Shown here one piece after another: positions 3,429 to 49,232 of a stretch of DNA of 50,725 bases. How positions within the stretch are numbered: the stretch's first letter is position 1; every line of letters begins with the position of its first letter. This stretch comes from an uncultured Legionellales bacterium (GTDB lineage: Bacteria; Pseudomonadota; Gammaproteobacteria; UBA1113). The notes under the pieces were generated by a model that was not told the origin of the DNA, did no database searches, and worked only from the letters and a program-made list of their open reading frames with translations. Made by a program: the position numbers and the translations under genes. The stretch is taken from positions 1-50,725 of the forward strand of contig CAZULF010000002.1 in the NCBI GenBank assembly GCA_964621215.1, in the 5' to 3' direction.

Positions 3429-4445
3429 TTGCAGCAACGACGATGGTGGGCAATCGGTTCATTGGTATTACTTGCCATCATTTGTTTATACCAGCTTAAT
3501 GTAGTAAGAGCAGCCTGGTATCGATCCAGCGTTAATCCTTATATCTCCGTTTATATTAATGTTCCTGCGGGTACCTCGCTCATTAATCTAGCTAAACAAC
3601 TCCAAGCGCAAGGTCTTATTAATAATGCCCGTTATTTCATTTGGCTCGCACGACTGCGTTATGCACATAATTCGATAAAAGCAGGTGAATATGCTATTCC
3701 TCCCTCATCCTCTCCAGCTAACATCTTAAAACAATTGCATCAAGGTAAAGTTTTTCAATATACCATCACGCTGGTGGATGGTTGGACAATATACCAAGTT
3801 CAGGCAGCACTGAATGAGCAACCGCGTCTTAAACATCAAGTAGGCAATACACCTCCCAAGCAGTTAATGCAGCAATTGGGTTTTGCACCGAGCTGGCCAG
3901 AAGGATTATTTTTTCCTGATACCTATTTTTATATAGCCGGTACTTCTGACAAGGCTATTTTACAACGTGCGCACAAGTCGATGCAGCAAAAACTTAACCA
4001 AGCATGGCAGCACCGCGCAGCAGGATTGCCTTATGACTCACCGTATCAAGCGTTAATTGCTGCCTCATTGATCGAAAAAGAAAGTGCAGACCCAAGCGAA
4101 CGAACGCTTATTTCCAGCGTTCTGGTTAACCGATTACGGTTGGGCATGCCGTTGCAAATCGATCCGACGGTCATTTATGGTATGGGCGAGCAATATGACG
4201 GCAGTATTACCAGCAAAGACTTACGACAAGATACCTTGTATAATACCTATATTCGTATGGGCTTACCGCCAACGCCGATCGCAATACCAAGCGAAAGTGC
4301 AATTGAAGCGGCATTGCATCCAGCAACAACAAAATATTTGTATTTTGTTGCGAAGGGAAATGGCTTACATCAATTTTCTGAAACGCTGACGCAACACGAT
4401 AAAGCCGTAAAAAATTATTTATTAATGCTGAAGCAGAATATGTAA
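3429..4445 (+). CDS. mltG: endolytic murein transglycosylase MltG/YceG family
   Basis: N-terminal TM helix and YceG-like core (ASLIEKES, LQIDPTVIYG). TTG start with AAGGG upstream, and the conserved position before tmk. Confidence 0.85.
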   Translation: MQQRRWWAIGSLVLLAIICLYQLNVVRAAWYRSSVNPYISVYINVPAGTSLINLAKQLQAQGLINNARYFIWLARLRYAHNSIKAGEYAIPPSSSPANILKQLHQGKVFQYTITLVDGWTIYQVQAALNEQPRLKHQVGNTPPKQLMQQLGFAPSWPEGLFFPDTYFYIAGTSDKAILQRAHKSMQQKLNQAWQHRAAGLPYDSPYQALIAASLIEKESADPSERTLISSVLVNRLRLGMPLQIDPTVIYGMGEQYDGSITSKDLRQDTLYNTYIRMGLPPTPIAIPSESAIEAALHPATTKYLYFVAKGNGLHQFSETLTQHDKAVKNYLLMLKQNM

Positions 4446-4453
4446 TTAAAATT

Positions 4454-4517
4454 TGTCATGCCAGCGAAGGCTGGCATCCATTTTCGGGACTGGATGCCAG
4501 CCTTCGCTGGCATGACA
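4454..4517. repeat. REP-A full palindrome (27-nt arms tgtcatgccagcgaaggctggcatcca, 10-nt loop)
   Basis: Perfect inverted repeat of 4454-4480 and 4491-4517. Further copies lie at 6364, 19666 and 30149. Confidence 0.9.
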
Positions 4518-4545
4518 ATCTAGTATGACTAAAAGAGGGAACAAC

Positions 4546-5199
4546 ATGACTAAGAAACGCGGATTATTTATCACTGTCGAAGGCATCGAAGGTGTCGGCA
4601 AAACGACGGCCATGCAATTTTTGCAACATTGGCTGGAGCATAAAGGTATCGATTTTTTGCAAACTCGTGAACCCGGTGGAACCTTGATTGCAGAACAAAT
4701 CCGTCACTTATTTTTGAAAAAACAAATTGAATCAATTCATGCTGATACCGAATTACTGCTAGTATTTGCCGCAAGGGCGCAGCATCTTCAAAATGTAATT
4801 TTACCGGCTATGGCTGAAGGCAAGTGGGTGATATGCGATCGTTTTACTGATGCAACCTATGCTTATCAAGGCGGTGGCCGTGGGATGGATGTGCAGCGTA
4901 TTGAATTGATAGAAAATTGGGTGCAGAATGATTTTAGGCCAGATTGTATTTTATTATTAGATGCGCCCATTGAAGTTTGTTTGGACCGCGCTAAAAAGCG
5001 CGGCGCATTGGATCGCATTGAATCAGAAAAAACCGCATTTTTTGTACGAGCACGTAATGCCTATCTACAGCGCGCCACTGCAGCGCCGGATCGTTATCGC
5101 ATTGTTGATGCTTCATTGCCAATACAACAAGTGCAAGAGAACATTAATCACATTCTCGACCAATTGTGGGAACAACACCATCATGCCAGTAAGAAATGA
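4546..5199 (+). CDS. tmk: thymidylate kinase
   Basis: P-loop FITVEGIEGVGKTT and DRF motif. The ATG at 4546 has an AGAGGGA Shine-Dalgarno. Confidence 0.93.
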   Translation: MTKKRGLFITVEGIEGVGKTTAMQFLQHWLEHKGIDFLQTREPGGTLIAEQIRHLFLKKQIESIHADTELLLVFAARAQHLQNVILPAMAEGKWVICDRFTDATYAYQGGGRGMDVQRIELIENWVQNDFRPDCILLLDAPIEVCLDRAKKRGALDRIESEKTAFFVRARNAYLQRATAAPDRYRIVDASLPIQQVQENINHILDQLWEQHHHASKK

Positions 5200-6388
5200 C
5201 ATCTACCCCTGGCAACAGCAACCGTGGCAGCATTTTCTTGCATATCGTCAATCGGGTCGTTTACCGCATGCTTTATTGCTCAGCGGTGTTAAAGGCTTAG
5301 GTAAAGCGGATTTTGCCAAGCAAATTGCTCGAATCGTTTTGTGTAAAAATGCCAAAACGACCGGTGAATTATGTCAAACTTGTTATAGCTGTTTGCTAGC
5401 AGATATTATTGAACATCCCGATTTTTATAGTTTAGCGCCGGAAGCAGAAGGGCAAGCTATTAAAATTGAATCGGTGCGAGAGTTGATCACGGAATTACAA
5501 TCCACCAGCCATTACCATGGTTATCGCATAGTACAAATATCACCGGCAGAAAATATGAACATGGCGTCAGCTAATGCTTTATTAAAAACGTTAGAAGAGC
5601 CGGGCGACGATATTTTATTTATTTTAATGACGAGCGCAATTGGGCGACTCCCTGCAACGTTACGCAGTCGCTGCCAAATGCTACATTTTTCTCCTGATTT
5701 TAGCGATGCTACGCAAAAGTGGTTAGTCGATGTGGCAGATTGCAATAAAGAAACGGCGCAGCAATTATTAGCACAAGCAGAAGGTGCGCCATTGCAAGCA
5801 TTACATTTGGCACAAGATGCGCCATCACTACAATACCAACAAACATTATTAGCGGATTTGCTTGCTTTAACACAACCGCATACATCGCCTTTAGTTATTG
5901 CACAACGTTGGCACGAACTTGGCGGTACTATTTTTATTGATCAATTGTTGACATTATTAAATCAACTTTTATGGCTTAAGGCCGAAGTTACGTCGTCCCG
6001 CGGCCCCACACCTTCGTCGTCCCACGACGCCACACCTTCGTCGTCCCACGGCCCCACACCTTCGTCGTCCCACGACGCCACACCTTCGTCGTCCCACGAC
6101 GCCACACCTTCGTCGTCCCACGGCCCCACACCTTCGTCGTCACACGACGCCACACCTTCGTCGTCCCGCGGCTTGTCCGCGGGATCCATGCCTTCTCAAG
6201 CCGACGTGAACACCCTATTATTTCGCACGCAACACATTTCACTCCGGCAATGGATCGACTATACTAATGAAATCTTGCAAATCCGAACGCGCTACATAAA
6301 AAGCTCGAATTTGAATTTGCAATTGTTGGTTGAGTCTATTTTGATCAAGTGGCTACGAATTACTGGATGCCAGCCTACGCTGGCATGA
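5183..6388 (+). CDS. holB: DNA polymerase III delta-prime subunit carrying a 66-aa in-frame repeat insertion
   Basis: PWQQQPW...HALLLSGVKGLGK start, a CxxC-type zinc module and the LKTLEEP box. The ATG at 5183 overlaps the tmk stop. The ORF-track start at 4961 lies inside tmk and is rejected. Confidence 0.88.
   Translation: MPVRNDIYPWQQQPWQHFLAYRQSGRLPHALLLSGVKGLGKADFAKQIARIVLCKNAKTTGELCQTCYSCLLADIIEHPDFYSLAPEAEGQAIKIESVRELITELQSTSHYHGYRIVQISPAENMNMASANALLKTLEEPGDDILFILMTSAIGRLPATLRSRCQMLHFSPDFSDATQKWLVDVADCNKETAQQLLAQAEGAPLQALHLAQDAPSLQYQQTLLADLLALTQPHTSPLVIAQRWHELGGTIFIDQLLTLLNQLLWLKAEVTSSRGPTPSSSHDATPSSSHGPTPSSSHDATPSSSHDATPSSSHGPTPSSSHDATPSSSRGLSAGSMPSQADVNTLLFRTQHISLRQWIDYTNEILQIRTRYIKSSNLNLQLLVESILIKWLRITGCQPTLA
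5991..6188 (+). repeat. 7 x 24-bp tandem repeat (cgtcgtcccacgRcScacacctt) ending in a REP-B module, in frame within holB
   Basis: Units start at 5991, 6015, 6039, 6063, 6087, 6111 and 6135. The terminal module cgtcgtcccgcggcttgtccgcgggatcca is at 6159-6188. The array encodes (TPSSSH[DG][AP])n. Confidence 0.95.
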
Positions 6389-30116: not shown

Positions 30117-30212
30117 CCTGGATGCAGCGAAGCGGAATCTATCAGATTTGTCATGCCAGCGAAGGCTGGCATCCAAGTCCACAGATGGATGCCAGCCTTC
30201 GCTGGCATGATA
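30113..30212. repeat. REP cluster: REP-C arm (30113-30140) plus REP-A full palindrome (30149-30212)
   Basis: gtagcctggatgcagcgaagcggaatct, followed by tgtcatgccagcgaaggctggcatcca...tggatgccagccttcgctggcatga. Confidence 0.9.
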
Positions 30213-30242
30213 ACATTTAAAAAGTGTCTGGTACAGAGGGCG

Positions 30243-31785: not shown

Positions 31786-31897
31786 CAGAAATCGTCATCC
31801 CGCGGCTTGCAGAAATTGTCATCCCGCGGCTTGTCCGCGGGATCCAGAACGCATCGACACGCCATGGATCCCGCGAATAAATCGCGGGACGACGAGG
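31786..31897. repeat. REP-B element with 24-bp tandem duplication, filling the emrA-emrB spacer
   Basis: cagaaatcgtcatcccgcggcttg (31786-31809) is duplicated at 31810-31833 with 1 mismatch. This is followed by a full REP-B with its arms swapped relative to copy 15011. Confidence 0.9.
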
Positions 31898-36744: not shown

Positions 36745-36825
36745 ATCGTTCCGTGGCTTGTCCACGGGATCCAGAACGCGTTGACACGACCTGGATCCCG
36801 CGAATAAATCGCGGGACGACGCGAT
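36745..36825. repeat. REP-B full element (diverged)
   Basis: atcgttccgtggcttgtccacgggatcc-agaacgcgttgacacgacct-ggatcccgcgaataaatcgcgggacgacgcgat. Confidence 0.85.
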
Positions 36826-38076: not shown

Positions 38077-38156
38077 TGTAGTCTGGATGGAGCGTAGCGG
38101 AATCCGGGATTCTCGGATAAAAAACCCGGATTCCGCTACGCGTCATCCAGGCTACA
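38077..38156. repeat. REP-C full palindrome
   Basis: tgtagtctggatggagcgtagcggaatccggg, a 16-nt loop, then cccggattccgctacgcgtcatccaggctaca. The bolA stop codon (38152-38154) lies in the right arm. Confidence 0.9.
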
Positions 38157-43037: not shown

Positions 43038-43132
43038 TAAGCTTTATAAAGAGCCACATTCTACATTTTCCTCGTGCTCACTGCAACGGAACATGAAAAA
43101 AATAACTTTTTTCTGAATTTCATGAAATTTCC

Positions 43133-43263
43133 GTAGCCTGGATGGAGCGCTAGCGAAATCCGGGGTGCATACCCCAAGGTCAGACCGTCGTCCCGCGGCT
43201 TGTCCGCGGGATCCAGAATACATCGTCATCCCCGGATTTCGCTAGCGCTCCATCCAGGCTACA
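43133..43263. repeat. composite nested element: REP-C arms enclosing a REP-D fragment and one REP-B module
   Basis: Arms are 43133-43165 and 43230-43263. The interior holds ccccaaggtc (REP-D-like) and cgtcgtcccgcggcttgtccgcgggatccag (43186-43216). Confidence 0.88.
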
Positions 43264-43322
43264 GGAACTAGAATACTTGCGAAAACCCGGTGGGTAGCGT
43301 ATTCTTTGCTCCTTATTCAATT

Positions 43323-43467
43323 GGAGAGGTACCGAAGTGGTCATAACGGCACCGACTCGACAAAAACGGCAGGATAGCCGTTTTGGACGCGCGAAGCGCG
43401 GGGCGCAGCCCCGAGGCACATGGATGTGCCGAGTCCAATCGGTCGGGGGCGTGAGCTCCCGACCATA
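43323..43467 (+). pseudogene. tRNA-Ser pseudo-copy: 5' half, 76-nt insert in the anticodon loop, altered variable arm, no T-arm
   Basis: 43323-43360 is identical to 43496-43533, and 43437-43449 (aatcggtcggggg) is identical to 43534-43546. No T-arm or 3' acceptor strand follows. Confidence 0.75.
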
Positions 43468-43495: not shown

Positions 43496-43586
43496 GGAGA
43501 GGTACCGAAGTGGTCATAACGGCACCGACTCGAAATCGGTCGGGGGCTAACGCCCCACAAGGGTTCGAATCCCTTCCTCTCCGCCA
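43496..43586 (+). tRNA. tRNA-Ser (anticodon CGA)
   Basis: Manual cloverleaf: acceptor GGAGAGG/CCTCTCC, anticodon stem ACCGA/TCGGT with loop CTCGAAA, long variable arm, T-arm AAGGG-TTCGAAT-CCCTT, and an encoded GCCA end. Confidence 0.92.
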
Positions 43587-45745: not shown

Positions 45746-45821
<76 letters not shown>

Positions 45822-45855
45822 AACTTAAAAGGCCCCCTAAACGGGGTAGAGCCAA

Positions 45856-46782
45856 TTAATAACAATCTAACAATGTCTGTTGTAATTTATCTTGTTCACA
45901 ATTGTATGGATTGCGTATCCAATCTTTAACAGATATAACAGTGTTATTTATAAATGCATATTCCTCTTTTACATTTATAGTATTAAATGGTATTTTATTT
46001 TTTGCATTAGGGTTATGAATCATAATAAAGTCATTAAAAACATCATGATCTGGAGAAGCATTTTTTCCTGAAATGATAACGGCACTTAGTGAAGCAAATC
46101 TCTTATCTAAAAAGATGTCTTTTCTTATTAAACTATCATTATGTTTTTGAATTGCGTCTTGGAGTGTTAAATATAGGGTATCATCAACTTCTTCTCTTGG
46201 ATCAATACTAAATCGGATGGCTGGAGGACCAAATGGAAAAAAGGTACCTATAATGTGATGGGGAATTAAATTAAAGCCTATTTTATTATAGTAAGAAATA
46301 AGATCACTAAAAGGAATCTCACCATATAAGCCAATTACGATAATAAATGGATCTGTTTTTTCAATTATACCCGTACTTAAATAGGCTTTATATCGTGCTT
46401 CTTTTTTAGGAGCTCCAATCATTTTTTCATGTAATGCATTTATTATCATTAATTGAATTTTCTGTATATCTGGAGTATGAACTCCCCCGTTTGTTTTGTC
46501 TTCTATGCGGTTTTCGTCAGATGAAAATTGATTTTGTGGAGTTGTACACTCAATGAAAATTTTTTCTTCGCCTCTATGAAGAAGAAAGTCAGGACTTGCT
46601 TTATTTTTTCGACTTGGAGAACTTAGATGAAAATCACTATTATTTTCGGCTAAAATTTTCGCAGTCAAAATTTCTGTATATTTAGTTGAAATGTACTTTG
46701 GAGATTTATCTAGTTTTCTAAGAAAATCTTTATCTAACACGTGAGAGTAGTTGGGATACCATTCATTTATTCGGTTTAACAT
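45856..46782 (-). CDS. hypothetical 308-aa protein, possible PD-(D/E)xK-like N-terminal nuclease fold
   Basis: The ATG at 46782 has a strong AAGGAG Shine-Dalgarno. The segment TEILTAKILAE...SPDFLL...KIFIECTT resembles an E...D...ExK-type core with the Lys replaced. I recognise no family. Confidence 0.6.
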   Translation of the reverse strand: MLNRINEWYPNYSHVLDKDFLRKLDKSPKYISTKYTEILTAKILAENNSDFHLSSPSRKNKASPDFLLHRGEEKIFIECTTPQNQFSSDENRIEDKTNGGVHTPDIQKIQLMIINALHEKMIGAPKKEARYKAYLSTGIIEKTDPFIIVIGLYGEIPFSDLISYYNKIGFNLIPHHIIGTFFPFGPPAIRFSIDPREEVDDTLYLTLQDAIQKHNDSLIRKDIFLDKRFASLSAVIISGKNASPDHDVFNDFIMIHNPNAKNKIPFNTINVKEEYAFINNTVISVKDWIRNPYNCEQDKLQQTLLDCY

Positions 46783-46831
46783 ATTTATCTCCTTTTGAAT
46801 ATAGTTAAGATGAGTACTTAAACATGGGGGC

Positions 46832-46923
46832 AAATAGCGAGGTAGCCCTCATTACACGCGTGATAATTTCGTTTTCTAACTTAATATCGAGACGCGTTTT
46901 AATGGGGGCTACCTCGCTTATTT
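46832..46923. repeat. long inverted repeat (about 23-bp arms, about 45-nt loop) between the two uncharacterised islet genes
   Basis: aaatagcgaggtagccctcatta (46832-46854) pairs with taatgggggctacctcgcttattt (46900-46923), with 1 indel and 1 mismatch. Confidence 0.8.
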
Positions 46924-46966
46924 TACATAACAATTTCATTAAGTAAGAAACATTTCCTAATAATCT

Positions 46967-47323
46967 TTACTGGCTAGATGGTTTACTCGATCTTAGACCA
47001 AGTGGAACAGAGAACTTGATACGATTGACCGCAGAGTTTTTTACAGTACTATTTGCCCCAATATTAGCTTCGAGGCCAAGTACTTTTACTCCAGCTTTGC
47101 CTCCATTGTTACCAGTAGTTTCAGCAGTAACTGCAACATCGAATTCAATCTGTTGGAAGTAGCGCCCCACAATGTGATCGTATGATACGTCAGTTTTTGT
47201 CGAGGTGCTTTTATTAAAAGGGAAGCATATTGCATCGCCTTGTTCCTTCAGTTCGATTCTAGCAGCGTCAACCCCATTTATGATAGAAACCAAAACACTG
47301 TTTATAAATTCTGTTAATTCCAT
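46967..47323 (-). CDS. small protein resembling the trypco2 (trypsin-co-occurring domain 2) family
   Basis: 118 aa. An N-terminal helix MELTEFINSVLVSIINGVDAARIELKE is followed by IEFDVAVTAETTGNNGGKAGVKVLGLEANIG...RIKFSVPL. This matches my recollection of the trypco2 pattern (helix, then beta strands around a GGxxG(V/I)K segment). Confidence 0.5.
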   Translation of the reverse strand: MELTEFINSVLVSIINGVDAARIELKEQGDAICFPFNKSTSTKTDVSYDHIVGRYFQQIEFDVAVTAETTGNNGGKAGVKVLGLEANIGANSTVKNSAVNRIKFSVPLGLRSSKPSSQ

Positions 47324-47532: not shown

Positions 47533-48519
47533 CTACATCACCATTAAATCATTATTCAGCGATATAAAAATATTTTTGCTGAGCGAATTAAGATTATCCA
47601 ACGCTTCTTCATAGGTTGGTTTCTTTTCGCCATAAACCATAGCTTGCATAAAATCACTCCAGTTTTTTGCCCACAGGGTATTTCCCTTGAGCGTTAATAA
47701 AGCACTCTTAATTTCCTCGACTGGATTCTTAGCATAATCTTTATTTTGATTTTTATAACGACTAACATCTTCATTGATAAGTCTGCTAATCAGTGTGTAA
47801 ACATCCTTATTCATGGCTTCTTTAGTCTTAATACAATAAAGATCGTAGATATGTCTCACTAATGTCGGATCAGAAAAAGCATCTGGTTTTCGATTGGCAT
47901 TTGCTGCTCTTCTGGTAAAAGCAACCCATTTTTCTGCGGCTGTTTCACTGACAGCAACACATGCCAACATTCTGCTTGGGTGCTCGGCGATATCGCCTAA
48001 AACTTGCTGAATTAAAGTTGTTATAGGCAATGATGAAATAGGTAGCTTTGATGTGACAACCATAAATTCAAGCTGTATATGCGGTCTCAGTACTAAATTT
48101 TTTTCATATAGCGAAGGATACAACAATGCAAATTGGAAATAATTACCAGCATCTCTAACCTTAAAATCCTCATCGGACACTGAAAACCCTAATCGCTTAA
48201 AGTGTGTAATTAGTTGCTCACGAAACTCACGTAATTTATTTCGTCGCTGGTTCAGACTGAGTTTTTCTCCCGCTTCAGTTAGATGAATACGAAAATCACA
48301 ATCTTCTGACATTCGTTCAACAATGCGGTGAGCCTTAGCAAGAGCAGTCCCGCCTTGAAAAACTAAGGTAAAATATTCGTTATTCAACTCTGATATTGCA
48401 TGAATAGCTCTAGTTACATGAAAATCTTTTTCAACGATGGATGGGGTATTAAGATTGAGTAAGTCGGTAGTTTCAATAACTAATGCATCTAACCTAATAG
48501 GATCATACGGAATACTCAA
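47533..48519 (-). CDS. abiEii: nucleotidyltransferase AbiEii/AbiGii-family toxin (DUF1814)
   Basis: 328 aa. FQGGTALAKAHRIVERMSEDCDFRI matches the GGTAL...R(F/M)SEDxDF NTase motif. It overlaps the upstream antitoxin gene by 17 nt. Confidence 0.8.
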   Translation of the reverse strand: MSIPYDPIRLDALVIETTDLLNLNTPSIVEKDFHVTRAIHAISELNNEYFTLVFQGGTALAKAHRIVERMSEDCDFRIHLTEAGEKLSLNQRRNKLREFREQLITHFKRLGFSVSDEDFKVRDAGNYFQFALLYPSLYEKNLVLRPHIQLEFMVVTSKLPISSLPITTLIQQVLGDIAEHPSRMLACVAVSETAAEKWVAFTRRAANANRKPDAFSDPTLVRHIYDLYCIKTKEAMNKDVYTLISRLINEDVSRYKNQNKDYAKNPVEEIKSALLTLKGNTLWAKNWSDFMQAMVYGEKKPTYEEALDNLNSLSKNIFISLNNDLMVM

Positions 48520-48928
48520 AAGGAAACTCCCTATTTTTATAGCTGACTTTTCGTCTAAAGCGTTTACCTATAATGGTAACTGGAGATGCTGGAATCTGAG
48601 TTGAGCGTCCTTCGTTATAGAGTCGTTCATATTCTGAAATAGCCCACGGTATACCCATCTTGGTGAGAGCTTCTCGCATAATTTCAATAAAACCGCGTGG
48701 TAAAATGGATTCACCTTTTCTGAATAGGGAGGGTCGTAGGGGCGCGTAAATACCATAGCCGAGACGCGCTAATCTACCTTTTTTTACAAGAGAAGATAAC
48801 GCTCGACTTAACTGCCTTTCAGAGCCGCCTAATTGAATTAAGTCACTCCGCAAAATAGCGATACTATCGGTGGACTCTATATTTTTCAATACAATATATT
48901 CAAATGAATCTTCATATTTAACTTTCAT
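48503..48928 (-). CDS. abiEi: AbiEi-family (type IV TA) antitoxin, short wHTH form
   Basis: ILRSDLIQLGGSERQLSRALSSLVKKGRLARLGYGIYA matches the AbiEi N-terminal wHTH pattern. The ATG at 48928 lies downstream of the promoter at 48959-48987, so the ORF-track start at 48997 would sit upstream of the -35. Confidence 0.72.
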   Translation of the reverse strand: MKVKYEDSFEYIVLKNIESTDSIAILRSDLIQLGGSERQLSRALSSLVKKGRLARLGYGIYAPLRPSLFRKGESILPRGFIEIMREALTKMGIPWAISEYERLYNEGRSTQIPASPVTIIGKRFRRKVSYKNREFPFEYSV

Positions 48929-48945
48929 GGTACTCACCAACCAAC

Positions 48946-49002
48946 AATGGACAATTAAAGTATATCTCTTTTTCATCGTTATGTCAAAAATGGACAATTA
49001 AA
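48946..49002 (-). promoter_or_regulatory. abiE promoter (TTGACA-17-TATACT) bracketed by two 14-bp direct repeats (putative AbiEi operators)
   Basis: The minus strand has -35 TTGACA (plus-strand coordinates 48982-48987) and -10 TATACT (48959-48964) with an exact 17-nt spacer. The repeat TTTAATTGTCCATT occurs at 48946-48959 and 48989-49002. Confidence 0.65.
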
Positions 49003-49132: not shown

Positions 49133-49180
49133 TGATTCGTAATCAGTAGGTCGGGGGTTCGACTCCTCTTTCCAGCACCA
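49133..49180 (+). repeat. attR-like partial tRNA-Thr copy (3' 48 nt)
   Basis: tgattcgtaatcagtaggtcgggggttcgactcctctttccagcacca matches the tRNA at 47 of 48 positions. Confidence 0.9.
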
Positions 49181-49232
49181 ACACCAGATTTAAAATGCCT
49201 CCTGATATGGGCTAGAGCCTAGTTTTCAGGAT

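Follow-up and report, generated by a model that had tools for sequence, protein, structure and literature searches.

Two neighbouring genes in a tRNA-Thr islet of an uncultured Legionellales bacterium are probably independent cargo rather than one defence module

We analysed a 50,725-nucleotide (nt) stretch of DNA from an uncultured Legionellales bacterium (GenBank assembly GCA_964621215.1, contig CAZULF010000002.1), here called the window, and in it two neighbouring genes for proteins of 118 and 308 amino acids (aa), which a first-pass annotation had proposed as a new two-gene defence module. Instead, homologues of the two genes did not co-occur in any related locus that was fetched. We consider it probable that the region is the cargo of an integrase-less 3.36-kb islet at a tRNA-Thr gene, consisting of three independent conflict-type units that are co-oriented by chance. 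These would be a complete AbiEi/AbiEii pair, a stand-alone 118-aa protein resembling Pepco, a name that covers both Trypco1 and Trypco2 (bioRxiv 10.1101/2025.11.14.688446), and a stand-alone 308-aa nuclease. The two minus-strand open reading frames (ORFs), hairpin, AbiE genes and tRNA islet of the annotation are all present, as follows:

45746–45821, plus strand: tRNA-Thr gene (anticodon CGU), called by ARAGORN and scoring 75.3 bits with Rfam tRNA; putative integration target
45774–45822: left copy of a 49-nt direct repeat (attL-like), corresponding to the 3′ half of tRNA-Thr
45856–46782, minus strand: 308-aa protein with a predicted PD-(D/E)xK-type core and a distinct C-terminal domain; ATG start, with AAGGAG (46794–46789) 6 nt upstream
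about 46828–46927: long imperfect hairpin (92 nt at 46832–46923, with the stem reaching further on either side) whose 19-nt arms (46836–46854 and 46900–46918) are 95% complementary by inverted-repeat search
46967–47323, minus strand: 118-aa protein of the Trypco2/Pepco superfamily; ATG start, with the Shine-Dalgarno sequence GAGGA (47334–47330) 6 nt upstream
47533–48519, minus strand: AbiEii nucleotidyltransferase toxin (Pfam PF08843, E = 9e-31; PADLOC AbiEii, E = 8.5e-92)
48503–48997, minus strand: AbiEi antitoxin/regulator (PADLOC AbiEi, E = 9.6e-31, residues 36–161)
49133–49181: right copy of the 49-nt direct repeat (attR-like), at the islet end, where no tRNA was called

The 49-nt direct repeat corresponds to tRNA-Thr from its anticodon loop through to its end, which is the 3′ half of the gene. 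The two copies found by repeat search are 98% identical, with one mismatch, and beyond them about 35 nt more can be aligned at a weaker similarity of about 75% identity. Between the copies lie 3.36 kb with exactly four genes in the ORF list, abiEi, abiEii and the genes for the 118-aa and 308-aa proteins, all on the minus strand, and the 3′ end of the 308-aa gene abuts tRNA-Thr(CGU). No integrase is among the genes between the repeats. The G+C content is 0.32–0.37 inside the islet and 0.42–0.45 just outside. Taken together, the repeat, the four genes, the lack of an integrase and the drop in G+C identify an integrase-less tRNA-Thr islet, such as a tRNA-targeting integrative element can leave behind or mobilise in cis.

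Whether the two families travel together was assessed by running profiles of both on the six-frame ORFs of all 97 fetched loci. For the 118-aa family these included 74 genome loci and the loci of the closest relatives, 80 non-redundant loci in all, most of them with 5–6 kb on each side and some on shorter contigs. For the 308-aa family there were four informative loci with usable flanks (L001, L088, L089 and L091/L092). A relative of the 308-aa protein was found in none of the 80 loci, and a Trypco2-like ORF in none of the four; both families appeared together nowhere but in the window and L093, which represents the same locus in another assembly. In L001 (118-9322), a 53%-identical homologue of the 308-aa protein begins only 70 nt past the 3′ end of a tRNA, so that there is no room for a small partner gene; it occupies the tRNA-proximal edge of its island, and after it come a SLFN_AlbA_2/HATPase_c_4 gene and a full JetABCD (Wadjet) operon. 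The nearest relatives of the 118-aa protein (46–52% identity) are solitary genes in four settings: beside an insertion sequence transposase and PemK/MazE pairs, within a conjugative element, within a P4-like satellite, and beside a SinI/Vsr restriction-modification system. The 150 proteins flanking members of the 118-aa clade matched 131 Pfam families, with no dominant partner. Recurrent flanks reflected local synteny only, namely 2-oxoacid dehydrogenase E2 in Rhodobacterales (five loci), integrases (five) and MAPEG (three).

These counts bear directly on the proposal that the pair is a two-gene defence system of recent assembly, with a nuclease-fold sensor and a Pepco-like membrane effector, or the reverse, and a hairpin that tunes their ratio. 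We regard this as very unlikely. The genes are indeed adjacent and co-oriented, no promoter-like site was detected for the downstream 308-aa gene, and Avs4 systems use Pepco and PD-DExK nuclease domains interchangeably as effector modules. A Trypco2-like gene in L004 also follows a different protein, of 292 aa, with a D...ExE nuclease-like motif. However, the families occur together in 0 of 80 + 4 related loci, the closest homologue of each lacks the other, and both proteins come from effector-type families, neither with a recognisable sensor. The 292-aa protein of L004 itself falls outside the 308-aa family (no match at E ≤ 1), as does a 300-aa neighbour of a Trypco2-like gene in L094, which was likewise considered as a family member and rejected.

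On its own, the 118-aa protein matches the Pfam family PF19631 (Trypco2) with E = 6.9e-4 and 20.3 bits, below the gathering score of 24.2, over residues 57–104 and model positions 31–74 of 78. No match was found in PADLOC or NCBIfam, and six relatives likewise had none in PADLOC. All nine of its close homologues do match Trypco2, the best with E = 3.3e-5, and a profile of these nine retrieved at least 1360 proteins of about 115–125 aa, several of which carry a precomputed PF19631 assignment. The Trypco2-like label given in the annotation thus holds: judged by sequence comparison, the link to Trypco2 is solid at the family level. The members are found mostly in Proteobacteria, Planctomycetota and Verrucomicrobiota, and the clade can be recognised by the signature EFDVAVT ... 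SRIKFSVP. Among 120 members, F61 and D62 of the FDVAVT motif are invariant and V63–T66 nearly so; in the RIKF motif, at least 90% of the members keep R101, I102 and K103, and F104 is invariant. RIK lies 16 residues from the C-terminus, and RIKF is followed by a 14-residue tail with proline and charged residues.

The annotation had also read from the sequence an N-terminal amphipathic helix followed by beta strands around the motif NNGGKAGVKV, which is indeed in the translation, as are the motifs SPDFLL and IFIECTT that it cited from the 308-aa protein. An AlphaFold2 (AF2) monomer model agrees with this layout, placing a helix at residues 3–28 and a beta-hairpin with strands at 54–69 and 96–110. 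The mean predicted local distance difference test (pLDDT) score is 67.9, the glycine-rich tip of the hairpin is of low confidence, and the loop at 71–96 has a pLDDT below 50. The hydrophobic moment of residues 1–18 is 0.40, and the strands show alternating polarity. A fold search with the monomer model returned only noise, with no significant match, and a search by sequence found no relatives of solved structure for either the 118-aa or the 308-aa family.

In Avs4, vWA-MoxR and other NTPase conflict systems, Pepco/Trypco2 proteins serve as effectors that form pores once a protease has activated them (eLife 2020 e52696; bioRxiv 10.1101/2025.11.14.688446). SsPepco is reported to be a 117-aa protein with a basal amphipathic helix that forms a pre-assembled beta-barrel of 9–10 subunits, and to become toxic once a protease cuts behind a conserved isoleucine, between Ile97 and Arg98, and so trims about 20 residues from the C-terminus (bioRxiv 10.1101/2025.11.14.688446). 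Judged by position, I102-K103 of the 118-aa protein would be the equivalent of I97-R98 in SsPepco. By analogy, the 118-aa protein would oligomerise into a small beta-barrel with the N-terminal helix as its anchor, and would become membrane-toxic upon removal of the tail after I102. As the annotation had remarked, there is no trypsin-like protease nearby: the islet contains no protease gene beside the 118-aa gene. Nor was any peptidase family recurrent among the 150 flanking proteins from the 80 non-redundant loci, and no ORF with the GDSG serine-protease motif was seen in the fetched flanks of 79 loci of the clade. The activating protease of this clade would then be encoded elsewhere than beside the 118-aa gene. 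A bolder and less probable reading is that the EFDVAVT/SRIKF clade is a widespread stand-alone membrane-pore effector with no need of a dedicated host protease, a new single-gene abortive-infection module that could be triggered by a phage or housekeeping protease or act uncleaved, and that here shares a cis-mobilisable mini-islet with AbiE and a PD-T7-5-like nuclease.

Several arrangements were noted at other loci with Trypco2-like genes. In L056, L078, L082 and L086 (Nitrosomonas, Halomonas and related genomes), a conserved 196-aa protein is encoded directly upstream of the Trypco2-like gene, at 4407–4994 (3538–4125 in L078); it weakly resembles PDC-M14B, a PADLOC candidate (E about 1e-9), and may be a real two-gene partner for one Trypco2-like subclade. 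In L094, a 116-aa PF19631 protein (5001–5351) is followed after 97 nt by the 300-aa protein mentioned above (5448–6350), which has a nucleotide-cyclase-like motif, FVDLLGFS. Two Trypco2-like paralogues, at 4536–4883 on the minus strand and 6001–6342 on the plus strand, share one P4-like satellite in L009; this satellite has an integrase, AlpA, Toprim primase and small terminase, with DUF3800 and RelB/YafQ genes nearby.

For the 308-aa protein, Pfam and NCBIfam contain no family. The annotation had likewise seen no recognisable family, but this does not hold for PADLOC, where the protein matches PD-T7-5 (E = 2.8e-6) and PD-T7-1 (E = 6.5e-4); it also matches PHROG 8571 (E = 2.3e-8). A word-indexed search of 5.8 billion protein clusters produced one close relative only, P0002 (53% identity), alignment with which backs the ATG start. 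A full HMMER search expanded the family to 359 representative proteins of about 300 aa. PD-T7-5 is matched by 70 of 71 aligned family members (best E = 4e-25) and PD-T7-1 by 69 of the 71 (best E = 5e-19). In all 10 members examined, the match covered about positions 14–238 of 346 in the PD-T7-5 model and about 108–349 of 452 in the PD-T7-1 model; from this partial coverage, the family shares the nuclease region with PD-T7-5 and PD-T7-1 but has its own C-terminal domain. Profile similarity thus makes the 308-aa protein a distant relative of these two named single-gene systems. Both are anti-phage systems from an E. coli pangenome screen (Vassallo et al. 2022, PMC9519451), and both have been listed as PD(D/E)XK nucleases (review, PMC10952713). 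A search with a narrower alignment of the family gave only 5 metagenome loci and nothing in IMG/VR, and tblastn found no relatives in plasmid or phage collections.

E37, K120 and N257 are invariant in the 71 aligned sequences, of which 90% or more also retain D65 and E78; all five are invariant in the eight closest. The C-terminal part has a motif of its own, NDFI[LM]IHNPxAKN (residues 251–262), which falls outside the region that the family has in common with PD-T7-5 and PD-T7-1; its D251, H256, N257, A260 and N262 are invariant in the eight closest sequences. The AF2 model is confident over almost its whole length (pLDDT 87.5; predicted template modelling score 0.88). In it, E37 is on the helix before the sheet, P64-D65 come just before strand 2 (66–70), and E78 is in strand 3, an arrangement like the canonical PD-(D/E)xK one. 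A fold search with this model gave top matches almost all of the restriction-endonuclease fold (FokI, LmuA, BspD6I, Bax1, Hjc, HincII, SfsA, DdmD, RecU and VRR-NUC), none of them significant (E at least 0.01). The annotation's guess of a possible degenerate PD-(D/E)xK core was a reasonable one, given these lists, the review cited above, and the conserved residues on the expected elements of a confident model. The protein would act as a stand-alone nuclease that cuts nucleic acid, presumably through a site composed of E37, D65, E78 and K120.

We also considered that one or both of these genes are decaying or functionless passengers, and that the islet is what is left of a larger integrative element after loss of the integrase. 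The missing integrase, the lack of an activating protease partner throughout the 118-aa clade and the single close homologue of the 308-aa protein all fit such an account. It nonetheless seems unlikely to us: both ORFs are intact, of family-typical length and preceded by strong ribosome-binding sites, every invariant family residue has been kept, and the 308-aa chain is modelled with confidence nearly throughout.

The preferred reading, three independent units, assigns the last two of them to separate transcripts. The 118-aa and 308-aa genes are 184 nt apart, and the RNA of this spacer folds at −51 kcal/mol, compared with −30.5 ± 4.1 kcal/mol for dinucleotide shuffles (z = −5.0; none of 200 shuffles was as stable). 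The energy of the hairpin within it is −44 to −51 kcal/mol, and a spacer of this kind between the genes stands as a further point against a two-gene system. The annotation had called the hairpin unusually long. It is certainly real and strong, but long hairpins are common here: the window has 13 inverted repeats that are 16 nt or longer, among them three or more palindrome families with several copies each, so that long intergenic palindromes are a habit of this genome. The families have arms of 28–58 nt and are located at 4453–4518 and 30148–30213; at 38077–38156 and 43128–43267; and at 14984–15117, 31818–31893 and 36746–36819. Such recurrence suggests a genome rich in elements like repetitive extragenic palindromes (REP) or miniature inverted-repeat transposable elements (MITE). 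The arm sequence of the hairpin between the two genes has no second copy in the window, the hairpin has no copy in 92 related loci or in IMG/VR, and Rfam has no family for it (best match E = 0.81).

Two specific identities for this hairpin were rejected. As a classic intrinsic terminator of the 118-aa gene it would have a poor U-tract on the minus strand (UAUUUG), and there is a better T-tract on the plus strand. An integron attC site is an imperfect palindrome bounded by RYYYAAC and GTTRRRY; neither consensus is present at the stem ends here, and the stem is more perfect than that of attC. The annotation's attenuator or operator is without support, the hairpin being absent from all related loci and the genome rich in intergenic palindromes. 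Most likely it is a palindromic intergenic element, or an insulator or terminator between two transcription units, and not a regulatory link. It would then set the 118-aa and 308-aa genes apart as two transcription units; both genes have a strong ribosome-binding site of their own. A 17-nt match, 88% complementary, joins the flank of the hairpin (46821–46837) to a site within the 118-aa coding sequence (47049–47065); it may be due to chance.

The AbiE pair is complete, with abiEi and abiEii overlapping by 17 nt (48503–48519). AbiEi probably begins at a start codon downstream of the TTG at 48997. A promoter scan identified a sigma-70-like site upstream of abiEi, from 48987 to 48959, with 11 of 12 matches. 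Two 18-nt direct repeats, CAA[C/A]AATGGACAATTAAA (48942–48959 and 48985–49002), lie 43 nt apart and overlap this promoter-like site; they are a candidate AbiEi operator.

With this site as the sole strong promoter-like one, and four genes on one strand within 3.36 kb, the genes for the 118-aa and 308-aa proteins could be imagined as AbiE accessories, forming a four-gene operon abiEi-abiEii-118-308. Of the explanations considered, we find this the most improbable. AbiE is self-sufficient as a two-gene type IV toxin-antitoxin system, and it is not among the recurrent neighbours in the fetched loci of either family. The genes are also set apart by gaps, 209 nt from abiEii to the 118-aa gene and then the 184-nt spacer, every one of them comes with a Shine-Dalgarno sequence, and a candidate promoter (TTGCAA-N18-TATATC) precedes the 118-aa gene.

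Several observations weigh against three independent units of the types named here. Four genes co-oriented and tightly packed in one small islet may engage in functional cross-talk. The promoter scan found no promoter between the hairpin and the start of the 308-aa gene, so that expression of this gene may rely on read-through from the 118-aa gene. The census on the 308-aa side is thin, at four loci with usable flanks. As to the proteins themselves, the 118-aa protein scores under the Pfam gathering cut-off and its monomer model is only moderately confident, and neither it nor the 308-aa protein had a significant fold match. In the latter a threonine (E78-C79-T80) takes the usual position of the (D/E)xK lysine, while the invariant K120 is on the following helix, so catalysis would need K120 or another residue.

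A second tRNA gene lies outside the islet:

43496–43586: tRNA-Ser, tRNA call confirmed

Part of it is duplicated, in that a 14-nt exact repeat (43437–43450 and 43534–43547) occurs 97 nt upstream of its in-gene position. This repeat adjoins the palindrome at 43128–43267, with 38-nt arms, and may be a remnant of another integration event.

If the region does hold three independent units, it is a compact example of the tiny tRNA-linked islets that stack unrelated defence genes. Known families would gain two divergent branches, namely a nuclease resembling PD-T7-5 and PD-T7-1 whose C-terminal domain is new, and a large Pepco-like clade without a protease partner. The latter is the more useful lead. 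It has more than 1000 members and no protease beside it at the 80 loci covered, which raises the question of its trigger, and Pepco has only recently been shown to be a protease-gated pore.

Compared with integrase-less tRNA-linked islets of the cis-mobilisable type, the islet described here has the same repeat of a tRNA 3′ half at both ends, one intact tRNA, lower interior G+C and defence cargo. It differs in that a cognate integrase was not found in the window, and its mobility is putative.

The 118-aa clade differs from Pepco in having no adjoining gene for a trypsin, caspase or other protease, either here or at 80 related loci. Its taxa are also different, Pepco being prevalent in Actinobacteria and cyanobacteria, and it has its own signature, with the 118-aa score under the Pfam cut-off. 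In other respects it resembles SsPepco. The lengths are 118 and 117 aa, an N-terminal helix with a hydrophobic face is followed by a long beta-hairpin, and a putatively equivalent isoleucine with a basic residue comes near the end, 16 residues from the C-terminus here and 20 in SsPepco.

From PD-T7-5 and PD-T7-1, the 308-aa protein is set apart by its C-terminal third, which is another domain, and by the missing (D/E)xK lysine. It shares with them significant hidden Markov model similarity across the nuclease region. Like them it is encoded by a solitary gene, without a conserved neighbour in L001, L088, L089 and L091, and it occurs in defence or mobile settings, with AbiE here, with Wadjet and a SLFN-ATPase in L001, and in a P4-like primase element in L091.

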